Assembly (NCBI GenBank): GCA_038062455.1
Contig: JBBTXE010000001.1
Coordinates: forward strand, 316,371-370,718
Source of the DNA: Patescibacteria group bacterium
Lineage (GTDB): Bacteria; Patescibacteriota; Microgenomatia; UBA12405
Reading direction: 5' to 3'
DNA length: 54,348 nt
The stretch's first letter is position 1, and each line of letters opens with the position of its first letter. The translations under genes were made by a program, and so were the position numbers. The notes under the pieces are model-generated. The model searched no databases and was not told the origin of the DNA. It saw nothing but the letters and a program-made list of their open reading frames with translations. This document shows, one piece after another, positions 8,019 to 46,371 of this stretch.

Positions 8019-9576
8019 TGACCGGATAAAAATACTTCAACTTACTATCATTGTTTCATTTTTTGTAGTCATCTTCCGTCTTTTTTACTGGCAAATCTTT
8101 CAGGGACAAACTATTCGAAACCGCCACCAAAATCAAATTTACCAACAAACAAAGGTTCTTCCAAAGCTCGGTCATTTATTAACATCAGATTCTTTTCCTA
8201 TCAGTCTTGATTCCCGTTTTTATCTTTTATCGCTCTATAAACCCAATCTCACTACCCAACTCGATAAGGTTCTGGTTTCTATAGAAAAAATAAAACCTGG
8301 GTTTACTTCAGAATCAGCTAAACAAATTGAGTTTTTCCTCAAACCACATATCAAATGGGTTACTCTGCCTACCAAATTCACTAGTGCTGAAATAAAAAAA
8401 ATCGATCTGCCTGGTATCAGCTTTGAGGAACAAATTACCCGATACTATCCGGAAGGGGATTTGGCCAAGGATTTAATTTTAAATCTTGAATACTATTACA
8501 AACGCAGTCTTTCGGGAAAAATAGGCTTTATTACTTCCCCGATAGACGCTACCGGCCAACCGATATTAAGCCGAAAAAACTGGCACAAAAGTGAAATCGA
8601 CGGGAAAACTATTTCCCTAAGTCTTAACCGTCAAATCCAAACGATTCTGGTTGCTTCTCTCGAAGATGGAATAAAACGTTTCCGGGCTGAAAATGCTACT
8701 GGAATAATTATCAGACCTCAAAGCGGCGAAATCATGGCTATGGCGACTGTTCCTCTGGTGGCCACTCAAAGTATGCCGCTCCGTCCCATTTCTTACCTTT
8801 TTGAACCCGGATCAATTTTCAAACCACTGGTTTTAGCCATGGCCCTAAATGAGGGCAGTGTCGGCCTTGATTTCGTCTGCCCGATCTGCGATAAACCGCG
8901 TATTTACGGCCAATATACTATTAATAACTGGGACGAAAAAACCCACCCCGATTCCACCCTTAAAGATGTCATCAGGAATTCAGACAACATCGCCATGAGC
9001 TATATTATCGAGAAACTGGGACTGGCCACCTTTCAAAAATATTTCCATCAACTTGGTCTTGATCAAAAAACCGGCGTTGACTTGGTGGGGGAATCAATTT
9101 CATTATTAAAAAAATACTGGTCTGATATTGATTTGGCCACCGCTTCATTTGGCCAGGGTTTCGCCGTCAATGAACTCCAAATGCTTCGGGCCTTTAACAC
9201 TCTGGCCAACCTTGGCCAGCTTTCCTCACCTCATCTCAACACCGCCATTCCTTTAAAAGAAAGTCCGGTTTTTTCCACCAATACAGTCGATAGCGTCGTC
9301 GACATTCTCAAATATGCCACCGAATTTGGCGCCGTTGGCAGTTTAAAACCAAAAAATCTTGAAGTCTGCGCCAAAAGCGGCACTGCTCAAGTAGCCATTA
9401 GCGGTCAATATACTGATACCGACGCAGTTGCTTCCTATATCGGTTTTTCTCCCTGCACTAACCCCAAATTCACCATGATAATTACCTTTGATAAACCAAA
9501 AACCTCTTCCTGGGGCTCATCTACCGCCGCCCCGATTTGGTTTGAAATCGCCGCTAAAATCTCCCCTTTGTTATAA
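8011..9576 (+). CDS. ftsI: Class B penicillin-binding protein (FtsI-like)
   Basis: TM anchor, EPGSIFK (SxxK), SDN (SxN), KSGTAQ (KTG). Start taken at ATG 8011. Confidence 0.88.
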   Translation: MNDDRIKILQLTIIVSFFVVIFRLFYWQIFQGQTIRNRHQNQIYQQTKVLPKLGHLLTSDSFPISLDSRFYLLSLYKPNLTTQLDKVLVSIEKIKPGFTSESAKQIEFFLKPHIKWVTLPTKFTSAEIKKIDLPGISFEEQITRYYPEGDLAKDLILNLEYYYKRSLSGKIGFITSPIDATGQPILSRKNWHKSEIDGKTISLSLNRQIQTILVASLEDGIKRFRAENATGIIIRPQSGEIMAMATVPLVATQSMPLRPISYLFEPGSIFKPLVLAMALNEGSVGLDFVCPICDKPRIYGQYTINNWDEKTHPDSTLKDVIRNSDNIAMSYIIEKLGLATFQKYFHQLGLDQKTGVDLVGESISLLKKYWSDIDLATASFGQGFAVNELQMLRAFNTLANLGQLSSPHLNTAIPLKESPVFSTNTVDSVVDILKYATEFGAVGSLKPKNLEVCAKSGTAQVAISGQYTDTDAVASYIGFSPCTNPKFTMIITFDKPKTSSWGSSTAAPIWFEIAAKISPLL

Positions 9577-9577
9577 T
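9569..9577 (+). promoter_or_regulatory. Extended -10 promoter (TGTTATAAT) for murE
   Basis: TGnTATAAT ends 12 nt before ATG 9590. Confidence 0.55.
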
Positions 9578-9589
9578 AAATCACGCCCT

Positions 9590-10816
9590 ATGTTCCAAAA
9601 ACTTAAAAACTATCTCTGGCACCTGCCCAGAACGCTTTTTTGGCAAACTTTCTACCTTTTCCCTCAAAAGTCATTGGTGTTAATCGGAGTTACTGGAACC
9701 GACGGCAAGACCAGTACCTGCAACCTTATCCACCAAATCTTATCCAACGCCAACATCAACGTTAAATCAATCACCACCATCAACAGCCCCGGACTTCACA
9801 CCACCAGCAATTTTAGCTCTAAAACTTTCTTTCAACTGTTAAAACAATATCAAAAAGACGGAGTTACTCATGTTATCTGTGAAGCCACTTCCCACGCCCT
9901 GGACCAATTTCGATACTTTGGCTGCCATTTCACCGCCAGTGTCATCACCAATCTCTCCCATGAACACCTTGACTATCACCGAAATATGGGAAACTATTTA
10001 AAAGCTAAATCACGTCTTTTTTGTCAATCAAAATATAAAATCCTCAACGCTGACGATCCTTATTTTCCGCAGCTAAAAAAACTACTCAAAAAAAACATTT
10101 TTACCTACTCAATCAAAAATCCATCAAACTTTCAGGCCAAAAAAATAAACATTTCCCCTGAATCTGTTTCTTTCGTCCTTGATAAGCAAATATATATTTC
10201 CGATTCACCCTATAAATACCAAATATACAATCTGCTGGCTGGTATCTCTCTAACCCAAAAACTCAAAATAAATAAAAAAATAATTATTGCCTCTATCCGC
10301 CACTTTCCTGAAACCAAAGGTCGACGGGAAATTGTCAAAAACAATTTCAAAATAAATTGTATTGTCGACTTTGCCCATACCCCCAACGCCTTATTTGAAA
10401 CTTTAACCGCACTTAAAATAATTTACCCGAATGGCAAACTTATCTGCCTCTTTGGCGCCACCGGTGGTCGTGACCAAAGCAAACGTCCTTTAATGGGAAA
10501 AATAGTTTCAGAAATCGCCGACGTTGCCATTATCACCGCTGACGACACTAGAAACGAACCAATCGATTCTATCAACCAGCAAATTATTTCCGGAATTAAT
10601 CCCAAAAAAATTAAGCAAAAAAAATTTCAGTATCACAATATCTTTAACCGTCAGGATGCCTTCAACTTTGCCGTCAAAATTGCTAACCCCGGCGATACTA
10701 TCATCGCCTGCGGCAAAGGCCATGAACTAAGCATCCTTCATAGTAAAACCGAATACCCTTGGTCGGAAACCGAAGCTTTTAAAACCGCTTTTAGAAATCG
10801 GGACCAAAATGTTTAA
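9590..10816 (+). CDS. murE: MurE-family Mur ligase
   Basis: IGVTGTDGKTST, EATSHALDQ, TNLSHEHLDYH, VDFAHTPNAL, FGATGGRD, GKGHE. Start taken at ATG 9590. Confidence 0.9.
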   Translation: MFQKLKNYLWHLPRTLFWQTFYLFPQKSLVLIGVTGTDGKTSTCNLIHQILSNANINVKSITTINSPGLHTTSNFSSKTFFQLLKQYQKDGVTHVICEATSHALDQFRYFGCHFTASVITNLSHEHLDYHRNMGNYLKAKSRLFCQSKYKILNADDPYFPQLKKLLKKNIFTYSIKNPSNFQAKKINISPESVSFVLDKQIYISDSPYKYQIYNLLAGISLTQKLKINKKIIIASIRHFPETKGRREIVKNNFKINCIVDFAHTPNALFETLTALKIIYPNGKLICLFGATGGRDQSKRPLMGKIVSEIADVAIITADDTRNEPIDSINQQIISGINPKKIKQKKFQYHNIFNRQDAFNFAVKIANPGDTIIACGKGHELSILHSKTEYPWSETEAFKTAFRNRDQNV

Positions 10817-11402
10817 CTTAAAAAATAACTTCTCTGTCGAAGAAAATTACCAAAACGGCTTCCTGCCGCAACGGAATTCCCGGAGTCTTTTTTACCAACA
10901 GACTAGCTGCCGATCCAATCTATCTTTATTTAACCTAAGTTCGGAAAATCGACGAATTCTTAACAAAACCGCCGCCTTTGCCTTTGAAGTTTCGCTTCTA
11001 TCTGATTTTTCATTTTCCTTAGCTACCCAAAAAACCATCTTTAAATGGGTAAAAAAACTCAACTGGGATTTCCCCATGTCCTCAATCAAAAATATCTTTA
11101 CCAATCATATCTTCAACCGACTTTATATTTGGAAAGACTCACCGGAAAGTATTATTGCCTATTCCCTTTGTTATTTCTCAAATACTCTTTCCCATATTGC
11201 TTACGTTTTTTACAATCCTGAGTTTTCCCATACCAATCTTCCCATCCGCCTTACCCTTCAGACTATTATCGATAGTCACCAAAATAAATTAGCTTTCTGC
11301 TACCTTGGCCGCTTTGACCCCAAACCGGAAGGCGTTGGCTACTACAAAAGAAACATGCCCGGATTTGAATACTTTTCTCAAAACCGGTGGAGACAATTAT
11401 GA
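10809..11402 (+). CDS. ATE1/Bpt-like aminoacyl-tRNA-dependent transferase (divergent, short)
   Basis: N-terminal Y..GF...R...F.LSSENRRIL and C-terminal HIAYVFYNPEF...CYLG...YYKR resemble the ATE_N and ATE_C consensus (VYTFYDPD...YYYLG...YK). Recognised by eye only. Confidence 0.6.
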   Translation: MFNLKNNFSVEENYQNGFLPQRNSRSLFYQQTSCRSNLSLFNLSSENRRILNKTAAFAFEVSLLSDFSFSLATQKTIFKWVKKLNWDFPMSSIKNIFTNHIFNRLYIWKDSPESIIAYSLCYFSNTLSHIAYVFYNPEFSHTNLPIRLTLQTIIDSHQNKLAFCYLGRFDPKPEGVGYYKRNMPGFEYFSQNRWRQL

Positions 11403-12712
11403 AAATTCATATTTTAGCGATTGGTGGCACCATGACTACTCCTTTGGCCCTAGCCTTAAAAAACGATGGCCACACCGTTACCGGCAGTGATCAAAAATAT
11501 ATTTATCCTCCTTTTAGCCAAAATCTTTACCATGCCCATATACCAATTAACCCCAAACTCAATTCTTTTTCTCCTGACTTAGTTATCGTCGGTTCTGCTT
11601 TTAAAAAATTTAGCCATACTCAAACCGAATTTGAATTTTTCAAAAATAAAAAAACTCCTTATATCTCCGCCACCAAATACATTGCTGACAATTTAATAAA
11701 AAGTAATAGTATTTTAGTTGCCGGAAGCTACGGTAAAACCACCATAACTGCGGCGCTTTCTTGGATCCTGACCAAAATCGGCTTTAATCCTTCTTATTTC
11801 TTCGGCGGCCAAAGTAAAAACCGTTTCCCGTCACTTAGGTTTTCCTCATCCGATTGGTCAGTAGTCGAAGCTGACGAATCTAAAAACGGTCTCGATACTC
11901 AGGCTAAGTTTTTATACTATCCGGTAAAATATTTGATTTTAACTTCATCCCGTTGGGAACATCACGATTCCTACAAAAGTAAAACCGAAAATCAAGAAAG
12001 TTTTATCAAACTAATTAAGCGGCTTCCCCCTGATGGCCTTTTGGTTTATAACGCCCAAGATCCGTCAACCAAGTCTCTTATCAAATACGCCCAATGTAAA
12101 AGTATCGACTATTCCCTATATACCTCAAAACATCCTTTTCTTTTCGGCCAACACAATCAAAACAATCTGGCGGCCTGCGTTATCCTCTGCCTTAATCTAG
12201 GAATAAGTCCTCAAAAAACTGATTTTTATCTTCAAAAATTTAAAGGCATTAAACGCCGGCTGGAATTAATATCAACTATAAAAAATACCTATTTTTACGA
12301 CGACTTTGGCCAAAATCCGATCCGTATCGATGCCTGTCTTTCGGCACTTGCCGATAAATTTCCCAATCAAAGAATTTTGGTTATTTTAGAACCACATGCT
12401 TCTTTTCTCCAATACCCAAACTCCCTCAAAGGCCTCGGTTCGGCTCTCAAAAAAGCCTCTAAAGTTTTTTTGGGTAAAATTCAATATTCTCAAAATAAAA
12501 ATACCCGAACCTCCTTTTCTGATTATCAAAAGCTTTTAGGTGATAAACTTATCTATCTGCCCCTTTACCCCGATCTCCAAAATTCGGTTTTGTCTTCCCT
12601 TAACCCAGGCGATGTTTTAGTTCACTTTAGTTCCGGAGGTCTGTCCGGCCTAAAAACCTTCAAACAAATTATTAATAAATTCAAATATCAAGCTTTAGAA
12701 ATTAGAAATTAG
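11399..12712 (+). CDS. MurC/Mpl-family ligase, N-terminus Mpl-like
   Basis: MKIHILAIGG...GHTVTGSDQKYIYPPFS, VAGSYGKTT, VEADES, KGIKRRLE, DDFGQNP, ILEPH. Confidence 0.85.
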   Translation: MKIHILAIGGTMTTPLALALKNDGHTVTGSDQKYIYPPFSQNLYHAHIPINPKLNSFSPDLVIVGSAFKKFSHTQTEFEFFKNKKTPYISATKYIADNLIKSNSILVAGSYGKTTITAALSWILTKIGFNPSYFFGGQSKNRFPSLRFSSSDWSVVEADESKNGLDTQAKFLYYPVKYLILTSSRWEHHDSYKSKTENQESFIKLIKRLPPDGLLVYNAQDPSTKSLIKYAQCKSIDYSLYTSKHPFLFGQHNQNNLAACVILCLNLGISPQKTDFYLQKFKGIKRRLELISTIKNTYFYDDFGQNPIRIDACLSALADKFPNQRILVILEPHASFLQYPNSLKGLGSALKKASKVFLGKIQYSQNKNTRTSFSDYQKLLGDKLIYLPLYPDLQNSVLSSLNPGDVLVHFSSGGLSGLKTFKQIINKFKYQALEIRN

Positions 12713-14057: not shown

Positions 14058-15092
14058 ATGATTCATCTCTACCTAGGTCTTCTTTTGTTTTCCTTTTTTA
14101 CCACCAGCATATTAGTTGTCCCCTTTATTAACATTCTCTATCGTCTTAAATTTCAGCGGCAGCGCCAAAAAACTCTCGATTTTCAAAATCGCCGGACGCC
14201 AATTTTTGATAAGTTTCACCGGGAAAAATCAGGTACTCCCGTTGGCGGCGGGCTATTAATTATCCTGTCAGTAACGATTCTCTTTTCCTTCCTTTTCCCG
14301 ATTCTTAAATTCTCCCAAATATTTATTTCCAGTAATTTCCGGCTCAATCATGAAATTGAAGTCATCTTTTTTACCTTTATTAGTTTTGGGCTTTTAGGTC
14401 TCTACGATGATATATCCAAATTTTTTGGAATCAAAAAATCCGGTTTCTTTGGTCTTAGGCTGAAACACAAACTTCTTCTTCAACTAATTTTAGCCGCTAT
14501 TGCCTCCTCCTTAATTTTTTTCCGTTTAGGAATTAATTTTATTTATCTACCCTTCCTTGGCGCCATTAATCTAGGTCTATTTTTTATTCCCATTTCTACT
14601 GTCATTATTGCGTCTTTCACTAATTTCTTTAACATTACCGACGGTCTTGATGGCTTATCCTGCGGCATCTTAACCATTTCCCTTTTTGCTTTCTGGATCC
14701 TGGCCGGCTCTTCCTTCGACACCCCTATTTCTCTTTTTATTTCCCTCTGGATTGGGGCTCTAATCGCCTTTCTCTACTTTAACGTCTTCCCCGCCCGAAT
14801 TTGGCTGGGCGATGTCGGTTCTCTTTCTTTTGGAGCTACTTTTGCCGTAATTGCTCTGCTCTTAGGGAAAATAGTTCCCTTAATTATTGTCGGCGCTCCT
14901 TTTATCATCGAAGGGCTAAGCAGCGCCATTCAAATAGTTTCCAAAACTTATTTTAAGAAAAAAGTCTTTCCGGCCGCCCCAATCCATCTGACCCTTCAAA
15001 AAATCGGTTGGGAAGAACCTAAAATTGTTTTACGTGCCTGGCTGGCAACCATTATTCTGGCTATCTTTGGCTTATGGCTGGGTCTAAACTAG
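14058..15092 (+). CDS. mraY: Phospho-N-acetylmuramoyl-pentapeptide transferase
   Basis: KSGTPVGGG, GLYDD, NFFNITDGLDGL, GDVGS, APIHLTLQKIGWEEPKIV; multi-TM. Confidence 0.93.
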   Translation: MIHLYLGLLLFSFFTTSILVVPFINILYRLKFQRQRQKTLDFQNRRTPIFDKFHREKSGTPVGGGLLIILSVTILFSFLFPILKFSQIFISSNFRLNHEIEVIFFTFISFGLLGLYDDISKFFGIKKSGFFGLRLKHKLLLQLILAAIASSLIFFRLGINFIYLPFLGAINLGLFFIPISTVIIASFTNFFNITDGLDGLSCGILTISLFAFWILAGSSFDTPISLFISLWIGALIAFLYFNVFPARIWLGDVGSLSFGATFAVIALLLGKIVPLIIVGAPFIIEGLSSAIQIVSKTYFKKKVFPAAPIHLTLQKIGWEEPKIVLRAWLATIILAIFGLWLGLN

Positions 15093-15649
15093 ATCTTCTC
15101 TACCTTGAAACTCAAAAATACCTTGGCTTACCCTACTTTTCTAATCTAGGTCGACACCAAACCTCATCTTCAAACAACGCTGATGTCGGAAAAGGCAGTG
15201 CCAAAGAAATTGCTCTCAGAACAATTGAGATCGCGAACCTTGAAAATATTAAATTAGTTAATCTGTCCCCAATCCAAATTTACAACTTTCAAAAAAAGCA
15301 CCGTCTCGGCATCGATTGTTCCGGTCTCGTTTGTCATCTTTTAAATTTTTATTTCTCACTTTCACTGAATCCCCGAAAAACCTCTGCCAATAAATTGACT
15401 TCCTTACCTCTCTCTACCACTATCAAACTCGGCGATATTCGCACCGGGGATCTTATCCGTCAAAAAAACGGTCGCCATGTTCTCTTCGTCATCAACCGTT
15501 TAGGCGACACCGTCAGCTACACCGACAGCCGTAAAGACAGCCGTGGAGTCAAAACTGACTCCTTTTCCCTGTCAAAACCGGATATTGAAATCGGGGGAGT
15601 ATTTCGGCTTACTTCTCTTCTATCAATACCTGATATTTCCACGGATTAA
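15074..15649 (+). CDS. NlpC/P60-like cysteine hydrolase
   Basis: GLPY...GIDCSGLV (catalytic Cys) and GDLI...GRHV (catalytic His). Confidence 0.7.
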   Translation: MAGSKLDLLYLETQKYLGLPYFSNLGRHQTSSSNNADVGKGSAKEIALRTIEIANLENIKLVNLSPIQIYNFQKKHRLGIDCSGLVCHLLNFYFSLSLNPRKTSANKLTSLPLSTTIKLGDIRTGDLIRQKNGRHVLFVINRLGDTVSYTDSRKDSRGVKTDSFSLSKPDIEIGGVFRLTSLLSIPDISTD

Positions 15650-15767
15650 GCGACACCATCTCTACTTCGGTCCCACACTCGCTACATTCTAAAATATCAC
15701 CTATCATTGTTTTATCACTATTTTTTATTTCCGCCTGACAATCAGGACAAATTACTTTTCCCATCAT
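15609..15767 (-). CDS. LysW/ArgW-like amino-group carrier protein (52 aa, absent from the ORF track)
   Basis: Hand translation: MMGKVICPDCQAEIKNSDKTMIGDILECSECGTEVEMVSLNPWKYQVLIEEK*. Two CxxC knuckles and the G[D/E]xxxCxxCGxExEVxSL[D/N]P pattern of LysW. Confidence 0.8.
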   Translation of the reverse strand: MMGKVICPDCQAEIKNSDKTMIGDILECSECGTEVEMVSLNPWKYQVLIEEK

Positions 15768-15795
15768 AATATATTAAAATGTAATAGCCTATTAT

Positions 15796-16596
15796 ATGAC
15801 ACCTTTAATCAAAATTGACTCAATCTTTCTAAAAAGGGAAGATCAAAACCCCACCGGCTCCGCCAAAGACAGAGCCCTTTTGCCTCAAGTCCAAAATCTA
15901 AAATCTAAAGGTTTTTCAAAAGCTGTCATTTCCTCAACCGGTAATGCCGCCATATCCGCTCAATTTTATTGCCGAAAGTTTCAAATTCCCTTAACTATTT
16001 TTCTTCCTCCGGCCGCTTCTCCTGAAAAACTCAAATTACTTGGCAAATTCACTATCTCCCCCAGACCAATCAGTGACGCCATTAAATTTGCCAAAGCCAA
16101 TCACGCCTATCTTCTCCGGCAATCTACCGATCCGGTTGCCCTCGAGGGTTACCAACAAATCGGTCAGGAGCTCATCTTTCAACTTCCCCAAATCAGCAGC
16201 CTTTTTGTTCCGGTTGGCAGCGGCACTACTCTGTTGGGTATCTCCCAAAGCCTACCTCAACCTGTCAAAATTTTTGCTGTTCAACCGGCCTCCCATTGCC
16301 CGATATCTTCATTATTTGACAAAAATTATTCTTCTGAAACCAGTTCACTAACCGACTCTCTCGGCGCTAAATATTTACCCCTAAAAAACAATATTTTAAA
16401 GGCTATTAGAGAAAGCGGGGGCGGGGGAGTTGTAGTTCAAAATCGAAATATTGAAATTGCCCAATCTTTCCTCATAAATAACAAAATCATTACTTCATCT
16501 GAAGGCGCATTGGCCCTAGCCGGATACCGAAAAATAAAAGAGGTTTACAATGTTGGCAACTATCCGGTTATTTTATTAACAGGGGCCAAAAGATGA
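15796..16596 (+). CDS. PLP-dependent enzyme, fold type II (threonine-synthase-like)
   Basis: LKREDQNPTGSAKDR (PLP lysine), SSTGNAA, EGYQQIGQEL, VPVGSGTT, SSEGALALAG. Confidence 0.85.
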   Translation: MTPLIKIDSIFLKREDQNPTGSAKDRALLPQVQNLKSKGFSKAVISSTGNAAISAQFYCRKFQIPLTIFLPPAASPEKLKLLGKFTISPRPISDAIKFAKANHAYLLRQSTDPVALEGYQQIGQELIFQLPQISSLFVPVGSGTTLLGISQSLPQPVKIFAVQPASHCPISSLFDKNYSSETSSLTDSLGAKYLPLKNNILKAIRESGGGGVVVQNRNIEIAQSFLINNKIITSSEGALALAGYRKIKEVYNVGNYPVILLTGAKR

Positions 16597-17705
16597 ATCT
16601 AGAAAACATTCTTGCCCATTTGCCGGTAGACTTTTTCTTTTTAGTAGTTGATAAGTTTTTAGATATTAACCTGCCCCGTCTTCCCAATTTCTATCCTATT
16701 TATCACCCCCATCTTTCCGTCAAAAACAGTGGTTATCTTTTATCGCAACCCGAAACTTTTGACTTTATCCAAAAAACAATCTCTTATTCCGGGCACAAAG
16801 TGGCCATTATTCCTTTCAAACCTTCAGCTAAAATCGATTTTATTTGTAAAAAAAATAATTGGATTTGTGTCGGCAACCCTCCTTCTTTAAATCGATTTTT
16901 TGAGAACAAAATAAATTTTCCCCAAATTATTACCAACTCCCATCTTCCCCAAATTCCCCATATTTCCGGCCCCTTAAATTCTAAACTATTATCCATTGCT
17001 GAAAAAAAATTCAATCTGCCCCTTGTTATCCAAACTCACTCCGGTTGGGCCGGCAACAGCACTCATTTAATTAAAGATTTAAAAAAAATATTTCAAATAA
17101 TTCCCCATGACACTCCAACAAAAATTTCTCCCTATCTTATCGGTTACACCCTCCTTAATAATTGCTGTCTAACTAGCCGCGGACTTCTCCAAAGTCCTCC
17201 CGCTCTCCAATATACCGGCATCCCCACGTTAACTTCAAACCCCTTTTCTACCGTTGGCCGCCAATGGCCCTCCCTGGCTCCTCCTAAAATTATTGCCAAA
17301 ATCCAAAAACTCACCACCAATTTTTCCGAAACTCTAAAAAAATATAAATACCGCGGTTTCTTTGGCCTGGATTTTCTGGTTTCTAAAAATATAGTTTATC
17401 TTTTAGAGTGCAACCCCCGCCTGACTGCCTCTTTTGCCTTTTATACCGACATCGAACTAAAAAATAAGCTAAACCCGCTTTTTTATTTTCACCTATTAGA
17501 GTTTTGCGCCCCGGATCAAATCAAAGATCTGACAAACGAAAACCGTTTTGACAACAAAAATATTATTGGCTCGGAAATTACCCTAAAAAACAAGCTCTCT
17601 GTAACCATTAATAAATATCACGATTACAAAATATTTTGCCATCATCTAAATCCGCAGCATATTGATCTGTCAATTTTAAAAAATCTCCAGAATGAAAAAA
17701 ACTAA
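16593..17705 (+). CDS. ATP-grasp ligase
   Basis: FENKINF, PLVIQTHSGWAGNST loop, YRGFFGLDFLV...YLLECNPRLTAS (ExN motif). ATGA overlap with the PLP gene. Confidence 0.85.
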   Translation: MNLENILAHLPVDFFFLVVDKFLDINLPRLPNFYPIYHPHLSVKNSGYLLSQPETFDFIQKTISYSGHKVAIIPFKPSAKIDFICKKNNWICVGNPPSLNRFFENKINFPQIITNSHLPQIPHISGPLNSKLLSIAEKKFNLPLVIQTHSGWAGNSTHLIKDLKKIFQIIPHDTPTKISPYLIGYTLLNNCCLTSRGLLQSPPALQYTGIPTLTSNPFSTVGRQWPSLAPPKIIAKIQKLTTNFSETLKKYKYRGFFGLDFLVSKNIVYLLECNPRLTASFAFYTDIELKNKLNPLFYFHLLEFCAPDQIKDLTNENRFDNKNIIGSEITLKNKLSVTINKYHDYKIFCHHLNPQHIDLSILKNLQNEKN

Positions 17706-18834
17706 GTTTCACTCCCCGCTTTTAATCTACATCTTCAGTCTGGTGACTATTGGTTTTTTATTTATCTCAGTATCCTCGCTTTTTGAGGCCCAAAGCAGTC
17801 AGGGTGATCCTTTTTTCTTTCTTCGAAAACAGGCCGTCTGGATTGGCAGTGGCTTTCTCCTGTTGTTAATTTCTTCGGCGTTTAATCTCGAATTTATTCG
17901 TAAATATTCTTTCTACCTCTATCTTTTTTCGATTGCCCTATTGGTTGCCGTTCTTATCCCCGGGTTAGGAGTAAAGGTTCTTGGCGCCAGACGCTGGTTT
18001 GATCTTGGGCCCATAAATATTCAGCCTTCGGAAATTTTTAAACTAGTCTCCGTTATTTTTTTCTCAGCCCTTTTTGCCGACCCGAATCAATCAACTTTTA
18101 AAAACCTCTTTTTCTTCCTCATCCCCGCCTTTGCCTTAATCGTCTTCGAACCAAACCTAAGTACCGCTCTTCTCTGTGCCGCTATTGTTTTTTCTATCTA
18201 TTACCTATCCGGTGGTCCCAACCTTCCTCTTTTTACCACTTTTCTCATTTTCATCGCTCTGGGAATTTTCCTGGTAGTTTCTTCTCCCTACCGTTTAGCC
18301 AGATTTAAAACTCTCTTAAATCAGGAAGGAAACCCTGACCAAAACTATCATAGTCAGCAAATAATAATTTCTCTGGCCTCCGGCGGCTGGTCAGGGAAGG
18401 GAATTGCCAACTCTGATCAAAAATATAGATTTTTACCTAAAATCAGCACTGATTCTATTTTAGCCATTATCGGTGAAGAAACTGGATTTATCGGATTAAG
18501 TGGTCTTTTATATCTATTCGTCTCTCTCGTTAATTATCTTTTCAAACTATCCAAACTCGTCAAGGAGCCTTTTGAAAAACTATTAGTCTCCGGTCTGGCC
18601 TGCTGGCTGTCATATCAGGCATTAATTAATTTTTCGGCCATTGTTTCCCTAATCCCTTTAACCGGAATTCCTTTCCCCTTTATCTCCTACGGCGGTTCCT
18701 CTCTTCTGACTCTTTTTATTGCCACCGGACTGGTTAGAAACATAGAAAAGCGACATCTTCCCTTGCTATACTCTCTTAATGCCAAGATCAAAAAAAATCG
18801 TCATCACCGGCACTCACCTCACTCCCGCCCTTGA
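17692..18834 (+). CDS. ftsW: SEDS protein FtsW
   Basis: GARRWFDLG, QPSEIFK, EPNLST, SGGWSGKG, TDSILAIIGEE, TGIPFPFISYGGSS; adjacent to murG. Confidence 0.9.
   Translation: MKKTKFHSPLLIYIFSLVTIGFLFISVSSLFEAQSSQGDPFFFLRKQAVWIGSGFLLLLISSAFNLEFIRKYSFYLYLFSIALLVAVLIPGLGVKVLGARRWFDLGPINIQPSEIFKLVSVIFFSALFADPNQSTFKNLFFFLIPAFALIVFEPNLSTALLCAAIVFSIYYLSGGPNLPLFTTFLIFIALGIFLVVSSPYRLARFKTLLNQEGNPDQNYHSQQIIISLASGGWSGKGIANSDQKYRFLPKISTDSILAIIGEETGFIGLSGLLYLFVSLVNYLFKLSKLVKEPFEKLLVSGLACWLSYQALINFSAIVSLIPLTGIPFPFISYGGSSLLTLFIATGLVRNIEKRHLPLLYSLNAKIKKNRHHRHSPHSRP
18764..18772 (+). promoter_or_regulatory. Extended -10 promoter (TGCTATACT) for murG
   Basis: Ends 6 nt before ATG 18779, implying a leaderless transcript. 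Confidence 0.45.
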
Positions 18835-22595: not shown

Positions 22596-25379
22596 ATGGC
22601 TTACTTTAAGGAATTACCATCAAATCCCAATTTTCCTGAAATGGAAAGAGAAATTCTTTCCTGGTGGCAGGAAAACGACATTGTCAACAAATATCTTCAT
22701 AAAAACGATGATTCCTCCAAAATCTTTTCATTTATTGACGGTCCCATCACCGCCAATGCCCCCATGGGGGTTCACCATGCCCGCGGCCGAACCATTAAAG
22801 ATGTCTTCCAAAGATACAAAAATTTAGCCGGATTCCAGCAACGTTTTCAAAACGGTTTTGATTGTCAGGGGTTGTGGGTTGAGGTGGAAGTCGAAAAAGA
22901 TGCCGGATTTAACTCCAAAAAAGACATTATTAATTTTGGCCTCGAAAAATTTACCAATGCTTGCCTTGATCGCGTCTCTAAATATTCCCAACTTCAAACC
23001 GAACAATCTAAGCGTCTTGGTTACTTCATGGATTGGGACAATAGTTATTACACCAACTCCAAAGAAAATAACCTTTATATCTGGCACTTTTTTAAATTAA
23101 TTTCGGAAAAGGGGTGGTTAGTTAAAAGAAAAAGCGCCGCCACCTGGTGCCCCCGCTGTGAAACCGGTCTCTCCCAACATGAACAAGCTGATGGTTACAA
23201 AAATATTACCGATACTTCCGTCTATTTGAAATTCAAACTTAAGAACAAAGATAATGAATATGTCTTGGCCTGGACCACTACTCCCTGGACCTTATCAGCC
23301 AATGTTCTTTTAGCCATCAACACCAAATTTGAATATGTCAAAGCCAAATATGAAGGTTCCGTTCTTTATCTGGCCCGCCTCGCCGCTGATCGGCTTAAAT
23401 TAACTGACTACGAATCCATCGATGCCCAAAAACTTGTCGGACTTGAGTATGAACCCCTTTACGATATTCCCGCCCAAAATAATATTAAACACCATATTAC
23501 TAACTGGAAATTAGTCGATCCGACAGAGGGTACCGGCATTGTTCATATTGCTCCCGGCTGCGGTCAGGAAGATTTCGAACTTGGAAAAGTTTTAAAAGCC
23601 CCCATGCCCTCACCCCTTGACGAAACCGGCCATTTTACTTCCGATTACGGGGATCTTTCCGGCCTTTACGCCCATGATGTTGCCCCGTTAGTTTTTGAAT
23701 ATCTAAAACGACAGAATTTATTATTTAAAACCGAACTGGTTACTCATCGCTATCCTCACTGTTGGCGCTGCCATACCAAATGTCTTTTCCGTCTCGAAGA
23801 CAGCTGGTATATCGACACCAATCAAATCCGGCCGCTTATGAAAAAAGCTGCCGCCACCGTCAATTGGCATCCCAAATTTGTCGGCCGGCGGATGCAAAAC
23901 TGGCTTGATTCCATGGAAGATTGGATGATTAGCCGTAAACGTTTTTATGGCTTAAGCCTGCCTTTTTATGAATGTGACTGTGGTCAACTCACTGTTGTCG
24001 GCAGTTTAGAAGAATTGGAAAAACTGGCAATTGACCCCAAACCGATCAAAAACCTCATCTCTCTTCATCGACCTTGGATTGATGAAATAAAAATCAAGTG
24101 CTCCAAATGCGGTCAAAGTGTCAACCGGGTTCCCGATGTCGGTGATTGTTGGCTCGACGCCGGTATCATTCCTTTTTCTACCCTCAAATATTTAAGCGAT
24201 AAAAACTATTGGCGGAAATGGTTTCCGGCCGAATTAGTTACTGAAATGACCGAACAAGTCCGTCTCTGGTTTTATTCCCTGCTCTTCTTTAGTGTCACCT
24301 TTGAAAACACCACTTCTTATCAAAATGTGGTTACCTATGCCGAAGTCCGCGACGAACATGGAGAGCGAATGAGCAAAACCAAAAAAAATGGCCTTCCTTT
24401 TGATGACGCTGTTGCCAAGATGTCAGCCGATGCCATGCGCTGGCTCTATTGTCTCCAAAAATCCAGCTCAAATGTCAATTTTGGATATCGAATTGCTGAC
24501 AGTGTCAAACGTGAATTTATCCTTATTTTATGGAACTCCTATCGTTTTTTCACTCAACACGCCAATTTGGAAAATTGGCATCCTAATTCAGACGTCATTG
24601 CGAGCGTAACGAAGCAATCTAATATCCTCGACCTCTGGCTTCTCTCCCGACTCAATAGTACGATAAATCAAGTCACTAAAAGCTTAGATAAATATTCCAC
24701 CGCTAAGGCTACTAAAAACCTTCAATCTTTTGTTACCGATCTTTCCACCTGGTACATCCGTCGCTCCCGTACCCGATCTGATAATTTAAATCTTCTTTAT
24801 TACGTTTTTAGAAAAATCTCAACCTTGATTTCCCCTTTTATACCCTTTTTAAGCGAAACAATTCACCGTAATTTATCCACTCCCGTTCTTTCTGTCCACC
24901 TTGAAAACTGGCCCAAAGCTGAAACCAAACAAATTGATTCCGCCCTGGAAACCCAAATAAATCTTGCCCGAAAAATCTGCCAATTAATTCACGCCGAACG
25001 TCAAAGTGCCGTTATCAAAATCCGTCAACCGCTCTCTTCGGCCGCGGTCACTTGTCCCCAAAGTCTCTCCCCGGATTTAATCGACATCATTAAAGAAGAA
25101 ACTAATGTTAAAAAAATTATCATTTCCGCCTCTGACAAACTCAAGGCCACCCTGGATACCACTCTCACTCCCGAACTTTTAGCCGAAGGTGAATACCGCG
25201 ACTTCGTCAGAGAGATTCAAGTCATGCGGAAAAATGCCGGCCTTCTTATTACCGACCAAATCTCTATCAGTGCCCCTTCCTGGCCTAATACTTTCGAAAG
25301 AGAAATTCTTGCTAAAACTCTAGCCGTTTCCGTTACCAAAAGTAATACCCTGTCTATTAAAAAAGTCAATGCTTCTTAA
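22596..25379 (+). CDS. ileS: Isoleucine--tRNA ligase, type 2
   Basis: DGPITANAPMGVHH, GFDCQGL, WTTTPWTL, GTGIVHIAPG, DWMISRKR, RMSKT, WYIRRSR. Confidence 0.95.
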   Translation: MAYFKELPSNPNFPEMEREILSWWQENDIVNKYLHKNDDSSKIFSFIDGPITANAPMGVHHARGRTIKDVFQRYKNLAGFQQRFQNGFDCQGLWVEVEVEKDAGFNSKKDIINFGLEKFTNACLDRVSKYSQLQTEQSKRLGYFMDWDNSYYTNSKENNLYIWHFFKLISEKGWLVKRKSAATWCPRCETGLSQHEQADGYKNITDTSVYLKFKLKNKDNEYVLAWTTTPWTLSANVLLAINTKFEYVKAKYEGSVLYLARLAADRLKLTDYESIDAQKLVGLEYEPLYDIPAQNNIKHHITNWKLVDPTEGTGIVHIAPGCGQEDFELGKVLKAPMPSPLDETGHFTSDYGDLSGLYAHDVAPLVFEYLKRQNLLFKTELVTHRYPHCWRCHTKCLFRLEDSWYIDTNQIRPLMKKAAATVNWHPKFVGRRMQNWLDSMEDWMISRKRFYGLSLPFYECDCGQLTVVGSLEELEKLAIDPKPIKNLISLHRPWIDEIKIKCSKCGQSVNRVPDVGDCWLDAGIIPFSTLKYLSDKNYWRKWFPAELVTEMTEQVRLWFYSLLFFSVTFENTTSYQNVVTYAEVRDEHGERMSKTKKNGLPFDDAVAKMSADAMRWLYCLQKSSSNVNFGYRIADSVKREFILILWNSYRFFTQHANLENWHPNSDVIASVTKQSNILDLWLLSRLNSTINQVTKSLDKYSTAKATKNLQSFVTDLSTWYIRRSRTRSDNLNLLYYVFRKISTLISPFIPFLSETIHRNLSTPVLSVHLENWPKAETKQIDSALETQINLARKICQLIHAERQSAVIKIRQPLSSAAVTCPQSLSPDLIDIIKEETNVKKIIISASDKLKATLDTTLTPELLAEGEYRDFVREIQVMRKNAGLLITDQISISAPSWPNTFEREILAKTLAVSVTKSNTLSIKKVNAS

Positions 25380-26370
25380 AAACCGCTTTTTTCCTTTAAG
25401 TATTTCTCTTCTCATCTTTTTAACCATCAACCTTTTAATGGTCAGCTCTCTTGCCCCTCAAGTGTTATTAAAACAATCACTCGCCTGGATGGTCGGTATT
25501 TTCTTGTTCTTTATCGGCACCCAAATTAACCCTAAGCAAATTTCCGGCAACCGTTGGCCTATTTTTATAATTTCCTGCATTCTTCTTTTGCTTCCCCTAA
25601 TTCTGGGGAATATCACTAGAGGATCCCGCCGCTGGATCGATATCGGCCAAATCTCTCTTCAACCTAGTGAAATTGTCAAACCCGGACTGATGTTATTTTT
25701 GGCTTCAGGAAAATACTCTCTCCTTCATCTGCTCCCGGTGGCCATCATCATAGCTCAACCAGATTTAGGCAGTGCCCTTACCGTTTTGGTACTACTTATT
25801 CCTGTTGTCCTCTATACCCCAAAACTCCTGAAACTGTCATTACTTTTAGCCTTATTTGGCCTAATACTCTCCCCCATTACTTGGCGCTTTTTGCTTCACA
25901 ACTATCAAAAAAACCGGATCGAAACATTTTTAAACCCAACCCATGATCCTCTCGGCCAAGGTTACAATCTGATTCAATCACAAATTGCTGTCGGTTCAGG
26001 CGGCTTTTTTGGTAAAGGCTATCGGCAGGGGACTCAAGGACAACTTCTTTTTCTCCCTGAAAAACACACTGATTTTATTTTTGCCGCCACCTCTGAAGAA
26101 CTTGGCCTCGTTTCAATTCTACTTATATTCCTGGCTTACTTCCTCCTTCTTCGGACTCTCCTCAATAAAGCTTTTAACACCCTTAATAATCGCCCCCTTT
26201 TTCTTTTTACTCTCGGCATCACCCTCGAAATTTGGATTCAAATGGTAGTCAATGTCGGCATGAACATCGGCCTTCTGCCAATTACCGGCATTCCTCTGCC
26301 CTTTCTCTCGGTCGGCGGTTCCTCACTTTTAGCCCTTCTTTTTTCCCTGGGAATTATTTATTCCTCCTGA
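25369..26370 (+). CDS. rodA: SEDS protein RodA
   Basis: GSRRWI, QPSEIVK, QPDLGSA, YQKNRIETFLNP, QSQIAVGSGG, LPEKHTDFIF, ITGIPLPFLSVGGSS. Confidence 0.88.
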   Translation: MLLKNRFFPLSISLLIFLTINLLMVSSLAPQVLLKQSLAWMVGIFLFFIGTQINPKQISGNRWPIFIISCILLLLPLILGNITRGSRRWIDIGQISLQPSEIVKPGLMLFLASGKYSLLHLLPVAIIIAQPDLGSALTVLVLLIPVVLYTPKLLKLSLLLALFGLILSPITWRFLLHNYQKNRIETFLNPTHDPLGQGYNLIQSQIAVGSGGFFGKGYRQGTQGQLLFLPEKHTDFIFAATSEELGLVSILLIFLAYFLLLRTLLNKAFNTLNNRPLFLFTLGITLEIWIQMVVNVGMNIGLLPITGIPLPFLSVGGSSLLALLFSLGIIYSS

Positions 26371-45012: not shown

Positions 45013-46371
45013 ATGAAAAAATTTATTATATATTGTAGAAAATCCACAGATGAGAAAGACAAGCAGGTTTTGTCGATCGAAGCCCAGATTACCGAACTTA
45101 CCGAATATGCCAAACGAGAACGACTCGAAATAGTTGAAGTCATCAACGAAGCCAAAACCGCCAAAGTCCCCGGCCGAGAAATATTTAACCAAGTCTTGTC
45201 CAAAATCGAATCAGGTCAGGCCAACGCCATTTTATCGTGGCATCCCGACCGATTGGCTCGTAATAGTATCGATGGTGGAAAAATTATCTACCTACTTGAT
45301 ACTGGCCATCTTGTCGACCTTAAATTTCCCTCTTTTTGGTTTGAAAATACACCACAAGGCAAATTTATGCTCTCGATAGCCTTTGGCCAGTCCAAATATT
45401 ATGTCGATAATTTATCCGAGAATGTTAAACGAGGCAATCGACAAAAAATCCGAAATGGCGTTTGGCCCAACAAAGCTCCCATTGGCTACGACAATGACAG
45501 GCTAACCAAAACTATCCACATCAATCCAGAAAAAGCTAAAGCTGTCAAAAAAGCCTTCGAAATGTTTATCGCTGGTCAAACATTTACCCAACTATCCCTA
45601 TTTATGGCCAAATACGGCATTACTCGAGGTAACGGTAAACCAAAGGCCATAAACCAAGTTCGCAGAATGTTGTGTAAAAAGTTTTACATCGGCATTCTTG
45701 ATTATGGCGGTGAGAAATCAAAAGGGATTCATAAATGTTTTATTGATCGAAAGCTTTTTGACAAGGCCCAAGAACGACTCGAATATTTAAATCATCCTCG
45801 ACCTCATGGCCATTATTTTGCTTTTTCTGGATTGATGAAATGTGGGGAGTGTGGTGCTTCGATAACTGCCGAGACAAAAACCAAACATTATCTTCGCACC
45901 AATCGCGACGCTACCTACACCTATTATCGCTGTACCAAAAAACTAAAACCTTGCTCCCAGCACTATATTAACGAGTCAAAGTTAGTTGACCAGGTGGCGC
46001 AGCAAGTTAGTCTCGCCTCACTCCCCACATCGTGGGTAAAACAATGGCAGCAATGGCTAGAACGAGACAGAGTAGCCGAGGAGCAATCTGGGCAACAAAA
46101 CCTGTTGTCTTTGGACAATGATATTCAAACAATTGATCTGAAAATGGGCAAACTACTTGACGCTTACCTTGACGACACCATTGAAGAAAGCATTTACAAG
46201 AACAAAAAGAATCAATTGTTTGAAGAAAAATTAAAAATGGAAGAGAAAAAAGCCAAAACAGAGGGTTGCGGTTCGAGTTGGCTCGAACCTTTTTCTGAAT
46301 TTATTATTGGCGCACAGAATGCGCCAAATCGCGCGCGCAAAAAAGAAAATTCCGCGAAGGCGGAATTATAG
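45013..46371 (+). CDS. Large serine recombinase, C-terminus probably disrupted
   Basis: YCRKS (catalytic Ser), DRLARN, recombinase domain (APIGY), Zn ribbon CGECG...YYRC...PC, coiled coil. Confidence 0.88.
   Translation: MKKFIIYCRKSTDEKDKQVLSIEAQITELTEYAKRERLEIVEVINEAKTAKVPGREIFNQVLSKIESGQANAILSWHPDRLARNSIDGGKIIYLLDTGHLVDLKFPSFWFENTPQGKFMLSIAFGQSKYYVDNLSENVKRGNRQKIRNGVWPNKAPIGYDNDRLTKTIHINPEKAKAVKKAFEMFIAGQTFTQLSLFMAKYGITRGNGKPKAINQVRRMLCKKFYIGILDYGGEKSKGIHKCFIDRKLFDKAQERLEYLNHPRPHGHYFAFSGLMKCGECGASITAETKTKHYLRTNRDATYTYYRCTKKLKPCSQHYINESKLVDQVAQQVSLASLPTSWVKQWQQWLERDRVAEEQSGQQNLLSLDNDIQTIDLKMGKLLDAYLDDTIEESIYKNKKNQLFEEKLKMEEKKAKTEGCGSSWLEPFSEFIIGAQNAPNRARKKENSAKAEL

Follow-up and report, generated by a model that had tools for sequence, protein, structure and literature searches.

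What stands in for murD in a cell-wall gene cluster from which murD is missing? The question is raised by a 54,348-nt stretch of DNA from a Patescibacteria group bacterium (contig C1, positions 316371-370718; the whole stretch is called the window below), whose division and cell wall (dcw) cluster runs in the order mraW, ftsI, murE, a gene for an ATE1-like transferase, a murC/mpl-like ligase gene, murA, mraY, a block of four genes, ftsW, murG, ftsA, and ftsZ. The mraY-ftsW interval is the canonical position of murD in dcw clusters. In this genome (665 kb in 8 contigs, 86% complete) it is occupied by genes for a cysteine peptidase of NlpC/P60 type, a 52-aa zinc-ribbon mini-protein with the LysW fold, a fold-type II pyridoxal 5'-phosphate (PLP) enzyme, and a divergent ATP-grasp ligase.

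MurC, MurD, MurE, and MurF, together with a source of D-Glu, are taken to be the unvarying core of the pathway to peptidoglycan precursors and count as targets for antibiotics; MurD and glutamate racemase have long been regarded as near-universal in wall-bearing bacteria. The genomes without MurD considered here are a large and widespread set of Microgenomatia-type members of the candidate phyla radiation (CPR), 42 of 401 sampled species-level genomes of the class. In MurD's place they have a co-inherited set: the candidate carrier, the ATP-grasp ligase, the PLP enzyme, the cysteine peptidase, a predicted tRNA-dependent transferase, and a ligase shifted toward Mpl. The reading preferred here, at a probability of roughly 45%, is that the four genes between mraY and ftsW make up a conserved module for peptidoglycan precursors that works where stem residue 2 is added (normally D-Glu, by MurD), with the mini-protein probably serving as a carrier. 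A tie to the cell wall is strongly indicated, and the module is unrelated to Lys/Arg synthesis. An earlier proposal made by a model from this stretch (the original prediction) had taken the four genes for a load-modify-release set serving the wall and unrelated to Lys/Arg synthesis. The wall-linked, carrier-type module has held up, but not the assignment to amino-group carriers of the LysW/AmCP type: the mini-protein has an EEK tail, and the ATP-grasp ligase is not LysX/RimK-like. Nor did that proposal connect the murD slot, the absence of murD, and the ATE1-like gene that tracks this absence.

Four genes in the murD position

The slot is bounded on the left by mraY (14058-15092, + strand; PF00953, 97.8 bits) and on the right by ftsW (17692-18834, +; PF01098, 283.6 bits). 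Between them lie the genes for the NlpC/P60-like cysteine peptidase/amidase (15074-15649, +; 191 aa), the mini-protein (15609-15767, -), the PLP enzyme (15796-16596, +; 266 aa), and the ATP-grasp ligase (16593-17705, +; 370 aa). All four ORFs (open reading frames) were found where the original prediction had placed them, and with the geometry it described: the mini-protein and PLP genes start divergently 28 nt apart, the stop of the PLP gene overlaps the start of the ATP-grasp gene by 4 nt, and mraY and ftsW flank the block. The PLP and ATP-grasp genes are presumably translationally coupled. The 3' end of the mini-protein gene does overlap that of the NlpC/P60 gene, by 41 nt, as had been remarked, but this overlap is not kept in relatives and is therefore incidental. 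Because the divergent gap is only 28 nt, the promoters of the minigene and the PLP gene must overlap coding sequence; a perfect TATAAT lies at 15792-15797 (-), 24 nt upstream of the minigene ATG and overlapping the PLP gene start codon, and a consensus promoter scan gave nothing above chance. Also in line with the original prediction, a Pfam scan of 29 window ORFs turned up no lysX/argX-, lysZ-, lysY-, lysJ-, or lysK-type family.

The mini-protein gene, hidden on the minus strand, is genuine: it is conserved and evolves under purifying selection, as its description as a LysW-like gene had anticipated. It matches PF21344 (Zn_ribbon_LysW) with 47.5 bits (cut-off 27), and the sequences closest to it in the PDB are LysW of T. 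thermophilus (3wwl, E 1.3e-6) and LysW of T. kodakarensis (5k2m, E 8e-5), the alignment to LysW ending at residue 47 of 54. It is present in 49 of 61 related genomes, in open frames of 50-119 aa (most of them 54-71), and pN/pS (nonsynonymous to synonymous polymorphism) against four congeners is 0.16-0.27. Conserved are the four cysteines (CxxC...CxxCG), a G[DE] motif, the sequence ECxxCG, and the last three residues.

These last residues set it apart from LysW itself. The tail reads ...LIEEK; the acidic, Glu-terminal EDWGE tail that is the LysW hallmark is not present, and the protein scores below both lysW equivalog cut-offs (TIGR01206, 35.9 vs. 53.2 bits; NF041070, 30.5 vs. 75). Terminal EEK was found in 37/37 copies from 40 loci, these copies having been recovered by a pattern that requires a terminal K; the same tail was found in 7 further loci of other families with no such requirement. 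Every syntenic copy ends in ...EEK or ...EEEK. In a search of 1.8 billion representative proteins, the K-terminal LysW-like proteins form a subfamily distinct from the EDWGE class: the last Lys is constant, and the penultimate residue is E, T, Q, or G (tails ETK, EQK, VQK, and EGK).

Related ribbons occur in other settings. A second divergent carrier/PLP pair (L066, G023:C16, 877-2065) consists of a ribbon paralogue with the tail ...VVDEGK, back-to-back with a PALP paralogue; it adjoins the C-terminal domain of a MurC-type ligase, and the terminal Lys is kept but EEK is not. Among public proteins, P0241 (807 aa), P0247 (660 aa), P0242, P0252, and P0253 have 2-11 tandem LysW-like zinc ribbons; P0253 has two, and a C-terminal EEEK. 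A candidate Rosetta-stone fusion of zinc ribbon and ATP-grasp in G002 (a 793-aa frame) was rejected, its weak ribbon match being the zinc ribbon of leucyl-tRNA synthetase itself. A similarly weak zinc-ribbon match was seen in a G025 frame.

The PLP enzyme is a clear member of the PALP family (PF00291, 148 bits), with a PLP-lysine motif (NPTGSAKDR), an SSTGN loop, and a GSGTT loop. Invariant in the family are K24 (GS.KDR), S46, S47, G49, N50, and S142-G143 of the GSGTT loop. It had been called threonine-synthase-like, a label that has to be dropped: the family profile scores 75 bits with serine dehydratase, 67.5 with serine racemase, 67 with threonine dehydratase, and 66 with threonine synthase, the best threonine synthase model reaches 99.6 bits against a cut-off of 358, and the N-terminal ~60 residues of threonine synthase are missing. 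By these scores the enzyme appears to be a separate fold-type II subfamily, equidistant from the four classes. SbnA and cysteine synthases are also among its PDB and NCBIfam matches. Its gene adjoins the mini-protein gene in all relatives examined.

The ATP-grasp ligase gives a marginal Pfam match (PF02655, ATP-grasp_3; 25.6 bits, cut-off 23.2). Its best NCBIfam match is PRK06524 (E 1.2e-22), with MfnD a weak one, and a PDB sequence search was uninformative. The AlphaFold2 model (predicted local distance difference test, pLDDT, 92.5) has the ATP-grasp fold, with a Foldseek E of 7e-17 to biotin carboxylase domains; the enzymes nearest to it in structure (biotin carboxylase, PurD, PurK) are of a generic kind, and neither NCBIfam nor the fold search gave any RimK/LysX/ArgX signal. 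K106, D260, and E272-x-N274-x-R276, the Mg/ATP-binding residues, are invariant. The gene is present in 50 of the 61 relatives, and the family, at 175 bits or more, in 63/401 genomes of the class. It was considered as a missing Ddl, which is ruled out: a canonical Ddl (189 bits) adjoins MurF on contig C5. A paralogous system is found in a MurD-bearing genome (L065, G335:C10, 1189-3570), where a 793-aa protein with a PRK06524-like ATP-grasp domain, a long C-terminal extension, and no zinc ribbon is encoded next to a second ATP-grasp-like gene.

For the ribbon, the PALP enzyme, and the ATP-grasp ligase, then, the folds originally predicted are confirmed. The NlpC/P60-like protein stays just under the Pfam cut-off (PF00877, 21.4 vs. 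23 bits), though its triad is conserved: across 15 homologues the Cys82 of GxDCSG and His135 are invariant, with H, D, or E at position 151. Its profile found only marginal matches in the PDB (Spr/MepS, E 0.04-0.07), and the relatives share an additional conserved N-terminal motif, PYWxNK...GKG. A signal peptide is missing from all 15 homologues, which places the enzyme in the cytoplasm.

Across the 61 relatives, the mini-protein, PLP, and ATP-grasp genes occur, or are missing, as a set and keep the same divergent layout. The block sits between mraY and ftsW in 20/20 relatives examined, from six families of the order, and does so in four further families of the class. All four genes co-occur in synteny in at least 12 families of the class, the NlpC/P60 gene being syntenic in f1 (which includes the host), f3, f7, f9, f20, f26, f28, f42, and f44 and on contig L061. 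One genome without the module (G031) has a single Mur-ligase match; the module appears to have been lost there together with wall synthesis.

Absence of MurD, presence of an ATE1-like transferase

Only three Mur ligases (three Mur_ligase_M genes) are found in the host genome: MurE (9488-10816, +; 311.7 bits with TIGR01085, whose cut-off of 257.3 it passes), the MurC/Mpl-intermediate ligase (11387-12712, +; 441 aa), and a MurF-like ligase. The number of Mur-ligase matches is also three in a near-complete relative assembled in 4 contigs. The MurD cut-off (TIGR01087) is not reached in the host genome, where the best match, at 81.5 bits, is MurE, and MurD was likewise not found in any of the 42 genomes with both the module and the ATE1-like (hereafter ATE-like) gene. 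Of the 61 relatives, only members of f2, which is the family without the module, have a MurD above the equivalog cut-off (336-380 bits), and the MurD/module pattern is the same in relatives whose completeness reaches 98-100%. In the class sample, MurD is present at E<=1e-45 in 299/401 genomes, but in 0/42 module-bearing genomes outside family f42, vs. 286/338 others (Fisher p = 6e-30, not phylogenetically corrected). In family f9, only G273 has the module, and G273 alone is without MurD, which points to at least one independent transition or transfer.

A drift of MurC can be measured as well. The MurC-type ligase of the host reaches neither the murC cut-off (197 vs. 335 bits) nor that of mpl (188 vs. 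389). MurC of the MurD-bearing f2 family is above its cut-off, at 358-368 bits, with mpl at 164-172; of the ligases found with the module and the ATE-like gene, that of f6 scores 251 with murC vs. 193 with mpl, and a fragment from G273 scores higher with mpl than with murC. By these scores MurC is canonical in the presence of MurD; in the presence of the ATE-like gene, it falls below threshold and is shifted toward Mpl. The canonical Ddl of the host is encoded on contig C5 beside the MurF-like ligase, which is itself divergent (171 bits, cut-off 289). The genome has two further Ddl-like ATP-grasp paralogues; the coordinates of this group, Ddl included, are C5:3525-4676(-), C2:37653-38246, and C4:10096-10704. 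A second MurF-like ligase is encoded between murA and mraY in several module-bearing families (L024:3791-5053 and its counterparts in f5, f6, f20, and f26); f1, including the host, is without it.

In some lineages the module stands next to a MurD. The f42 module has no ATE-like gene and adjoins a divergent MurD (190 bits, covering only positions 82-420 of the hidden Markov model). On metagenomic contig L061 the order is mraY, PaaX-like, NlpC-like, MurD*, carrier, PLP, ATP-grasp, ftsW, and murG, where MurD* (260.7 bits) has a MurC-like N-terminal region; on contig L048, a K-terminal carrier is paired with a MurD-like ligase. Three states are thus found: (i) MurD alone; (ii) the module with a modified MurD; and (iii) the module with the ATE-like gene and a MurC that has drifted toward Mpl, and no MurD. 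Because states (ii) and (iii) share their families of ATP-grasp ligase, PLP enzyme, and carrier, the job of the module is presumably not MurD's own.

A candidate for that job is the 197-aa ATE1/Bpt-like aminoacyl-tRNA-dependent transferase encoded between murE and the MurC-type ligase gene (10809-11402, +), its start overlapping the end of murE (10816) and its end overlapping the start of the ligase gene (11387). It falls below the cut-offs of ATE_C (19.9 vs. 25 bits) and of the NCBIfam Bpt models (18-24 vs. 170-267 bits), and a PDB sequence search with its profile was uninformative; ATE_C is matched at E<=0.01 by 7/10 of the ATE-like proteins of relatives. The AlphaFold2 model (pLDDT 92.6) has the fold of aminoacyl-tRNA-dependent transferases of GNAT type: its top 50 PDB matches are all ATE1, FemX, MprF/aa-PGS, or Sba18, with TMq (template modelling score) of 0.59-0.73 to ATE1. 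The gene is found in exactly 42/401 class genomes, which are precisely those with the module and without MurD. In G273, it lies directly upstream of a murC-like-NlpC-carrier-PLP series. The ATE-like transferase is proposed here as the gene that replaces MurD.

A proposed carrier mechanism and its alternatives

If the module acts at stem residue 2, its parts could be fitted together as follows. The LysW-fold mini-protein would be the carrier, its flexible tail ending in the invariant lysine (Lys52). The ATP-grasp ligase would activate a carboxyl of L-glutamate, most likely the gamma, and join it to the epsilon-amine of this lysine, leaving the alpha-amino-acid head free, and the PLP enzyme would invert the tethered residue to the D form. 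The free alpha-amine might then be acylated in either of two ways: in some lineages by the divergent MurD, with UDP-MurNAc-L-Ala (MurNAc, N-acetylmuramic acid), and in the host genome by the ATE-like transferase, with L-Ala from Ala-tRNA. The cytoplasmic NlpC/P60 enzyme would cut the gamma-glutamyl-lysine link and so recycle the carrier; the MurC/Mpl-intermediate ligase would join the L-Ala-D-Glu unit to UDP-MurNAc; and MurE, Ddl, and MurF, all of which are present, could complete the pentapeptide.

The grounds for this scheme are partly logical. The module would be expected to act upstream of, or together with, the enzyme that acylates the alpha-amine of residue 2, because the same families serve in states (ii) and (iii) and the ATE-like gene is the proposed replacement of MurD. 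Since PLP chemistry and acylation of the MurD or ATE type both need a free alpha-amine, the cargo could hardly be held by its amine, as it is in LysW; a carboxyl tether to the terminal Lys is suggested instead because this is the only invariant amine on the flexible tail. It is constant in the carrier, even in the divergent ...DEGK paralogue beside a MurC-type ligase. There are precedents for the individual steps: ATP-grasp enzymes acylate the epsilon-amine of Lys (PylC and the lactam-forming ligases of graspetides), MfnD is an ATP-grasp ligase that joins gamma-Glu to an amine, YkfC-type NlpC/P60 enzymes cut L-Ala-gamma-D-Glu|Lys, Mpl attaches preformed peptides to UDP-MurNAc, and Bpt and ATE1 acylate N-terminal Glu or Asp. 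CysO-CysM-Mec+ is a precedent for a triad of carrier, fold-type II PLP enzyme, and peptidase. The fully specified version is doubtful as a whole: in this the LysW fold would have been re-tooled as the first "carboxyl-group carrier protein", with the Glu side-chain carboxyl put on Lys52 by a new ATP-grasp family, inversion on the protein, acylation from Ala-tRNA, and the first two stem residues joined off the nucleotide, on a protein made by the ribosome, before Mpl-like attachment.

Several observations weigh against the preferred reading. The cargo, the atom by which it is tethered, the PLP reaction, and indeed every chemical step are things that we infer. We know of no fold-type II PLP epimerase acting on tethered Glu, and the residue before the GN loop of the PLP enzyme is Thr, in threonine synthase style, not the Ser base of serine racemase. 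The four genes are not together everywhere: f5 and f6 have no NlpC/P60 gene at the locus. In G065, neither a PLP gene nor a carrier gene was seen less than 16 kb from the ATP-grasp gene (the ATE-like gene of this genome is on another contig). The phyletic pattern may go back to a small number of independent events (a single large clade and G273) or to transfer of the cluster, so the Fisher values overstate the support. The host genome is 86% complete, and a missing gene could lie in the gaps. MurI (PF01177) is absent from most of the order, in module-bearing families and MurD-bearing f2 alike; since f2 lacks PF01177 while having MurD, the absence of glutamate racemase does not discriminate. 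Alanine racemase was not found in the host genome by a weak test (an approximate E. coli Alr query and a PLP-site motif, in a genome 86% complete), although Ddl is present, and the PLP enzyme may have a role in D-Ala supply.

Four other explanations can be set against the same evidence. In a classical amino-group carrier, the alpha-amine of the substrate would be amide-linked to the gamma-carboxyl of Glu50 or Glu51, the PLP enzyme would tailor the distal end (giving, for example, a diamino acid for stem position 3 or for a bridge), and NlpC/P60 would release a non-standard amino acid. The globular domain has the right fold, syntenic copies have two invariant Glu in the tail, NlpC/P60 enzymes cut gamma-glutamyl bonds, and carrier-bound PLP steps are known in the LysW pathway (LysJ). 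This is nevertheless unlikely: in the wider subfamily it is the penultimate Glu that varies (ETK, EQK, VQK, EGK) and the terminal Lys that is constant, the ATP-grasp ligase is not LysX/RimK-like, there are no kinase, reductase, or aminotransferase partners among the scanned window ORFs, and the genetic link is to MurD and the ATE-like gene (position 2, where a free alpha-amine is needed) rather than to MurE. It is also possible to take the ATP-grasp ligase itself as the MurD analogue, adding D-Glu or another residue to UDP-MurNAc-L-Ala, with the PLP enzyme as a racemase of free Glu or Ala and the zinc ribbon as no more than an accessory or regulatory subunit, plugging an active site with its tail. 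The module does sit in the murD slot of a genome without MurD, acyl-phosphate chemistry is common to ATP-grasp and Mur ligases, PF01177 racemases are absent and no Alr was found by the weak test, and the PLP profile scores about equally with Ser/Asp racemases and with other classes. The same ATP-grasp family adjoins a MurD-type ligase in f42, L048, and L061, however, and so is not redundant with MurD; it is the ATE-like gene, not the ATP-grasp gene, that tracks MurD loss one-to-one; and an invariant three-residue tail under purifying selection suggests a substrate or carrier. An ATP-grasp MurD thus seems improbable.

A more distant role in wall supply or decoration would have MurD loss compensated separately, by the ATE-like and Mpl-like enzymes. 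The module might then provide a substituent for the alpha-carboxyl of D-Glu, or D-Ala or D-Ser, or follow a CysO/CysM-like scheme in which the tail attacks a PLP-aminoacrylate (a beta-replacement of SbnA/CysM type) and the ATP-grasp ligase and peptidase process the adduct. Beta-replacement is common in fold-type II PLP enzymes, and the SbnA and cysteine synthase matches would suit it; in CysO-CysM-Mec+ a carrier tail does enter a fold-type II PLP site and is released by a protease; and coexistence of module and MurD-type ligase in f42 is readily accommodated. These schemes leave unexplained both the consistent association with the murD slot or an adjacent MurD* and the restriction of the ATE-like gene to module-bearing genomes, and are quite unlikely. 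Lastly, the small protein might be a precursor of a graspetide or other peptide made by the ribosome and modified after translation (RiPP), or a substrate for peptide tagging, with a secreted or regulatory product in place of a role in precursor synthesis. In graspetides, lactams between Glu/Asp and Lys are the work of ATP-grasp ligases, and cyclisation of a Glu-Glu-Lys tail is conceivable. With a folded zinc ribbon in place of a leader and core peptide, no transporter or export gene in the block, a housekeeping distribution in the dcw operon of hundreds of reduced genomes, and loss along with the Mur ligases in G031, such a product is very hard to credit.

Relation to known systems and other features of the window

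No description of the module was found in the full-text literature searched; the public homologues are named "ATP-grasp domain-containing protein", "PLP-dependent lyase/thiolase", "hypothetical protein", and "arginyltransferase". The LysW/ArgW systems (Lys/Arg synthesis in Thermus, Sulfolobus, and Thermococcus, AmCP in Streptomyces, with LysX/ArgX and LysK) share with it a ~50-aa zinc ribbon and the load-modify-release logic of ATP-grasp ligase, tailoring enzyme(s), and hydrolase. They differ in ending in EDWGE, with a terminal Glu, where the module carrier ends ...EEK and has a tail ~5 residues shorter; in using a ligase of the RimK/LysX family, to which the module ATP-grasp does not belong; and in the predicted polarity of the tether, which would be reversed in the module (carrier amine, cargo carboxyl). 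The module also has no LysZ/Y/J/K homologues, and it is set in the dcw cluster, at the MurD step.

In CysO-CysM-Mec+ of Mycobacterium, the C-terminus of a small carrier likewise enters a fold-type II PLP enzyme after ATP-dependent activation, and there is a dedicated peptidase; the carrier there is a ubiquitin-like thiocarboxylate, the activating enzyme an adenylyltransferase, and the peptidase a JAMM metalloenzyme, with no link to the cell wall. Recycling by Mpl and YkfC-type enzymes offers another parallel, combining a MurC-family ligase for preformed peptide with a cytoplasmic NlpC/P60 endopeptidase that cuts between gamma-D-Glu and the diamino acid. The host ligase, by contrast, is below both the Mpl and MurC cut-offs, its NlpC/P60 protein has a unique N-terminal motif and only marginal similarity to solved members, and the proposed substrate would be made de novo on the carrier and not recycled. 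Fem enzymes link aminoacyl-tRNA to peptidoglycan precursors, and the 197-aa protein upstream has the same fold as ATE1/Bpt and FemX/MurM; it is roughly half as large as ATE1 and stays under the Pfam and NCBIfam cut-offs, and where those enzymes act on an N-degron or a side bridge, it is proposed to form the L-Ala-Glu bond of the stem.

The nearest published alternative route to D-Glu is that of MurD2 and MurL in Xanthomonas (PMC8788868), which is also an alternative for stem position 2 without the standard racemase route, with inversion after attachment. That route keeps a ligase of MurD type, MurD2, and its epimerase, MurL, is ATP-dependent and works on the UDP-MurNAc dipeptide (PMC8788868), while the host has no MurD of any kind and the parts of the module are a protein carrier, a PLP enzyme, an ATP-grasp ligase, and a tRNA-dependent transferase. 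If the preferred reading is right, the module would join MurI/MurD and MurD2/MurL as a third way of filling the D-Glu position; it would also bring new chemistry for the LysW carrier fold and a tRNA-dependent step within the stem peptide itself. The combination of carboxyl carrier and tRNA-dependent mechanism, if correct, would be categorically new, and would make MurD and glutamate racemase dispensable in a large CPR clade. In practical terms, the module is a set of small soluble proteins that can be tested in vitro, from organisms that cannot be cultured, and recognizing it would correct metabolic reconstructions in which such genomes are scored as "peptidoglycan pathway incomplete".

Elsewhere in the window, a second FtsW/RodA-family gene (25369-26370) lies just downstream of the dcw cluster and directly 3' of the gene for isoleucyl-tRNA synthetase (22596-25379). 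Farther right, a large serine recombinase with Resolvase, Recombinase, and zinc-ribbon domains is encoded at 45013-46371, which suggests that the right part of the window contains an integrated element.

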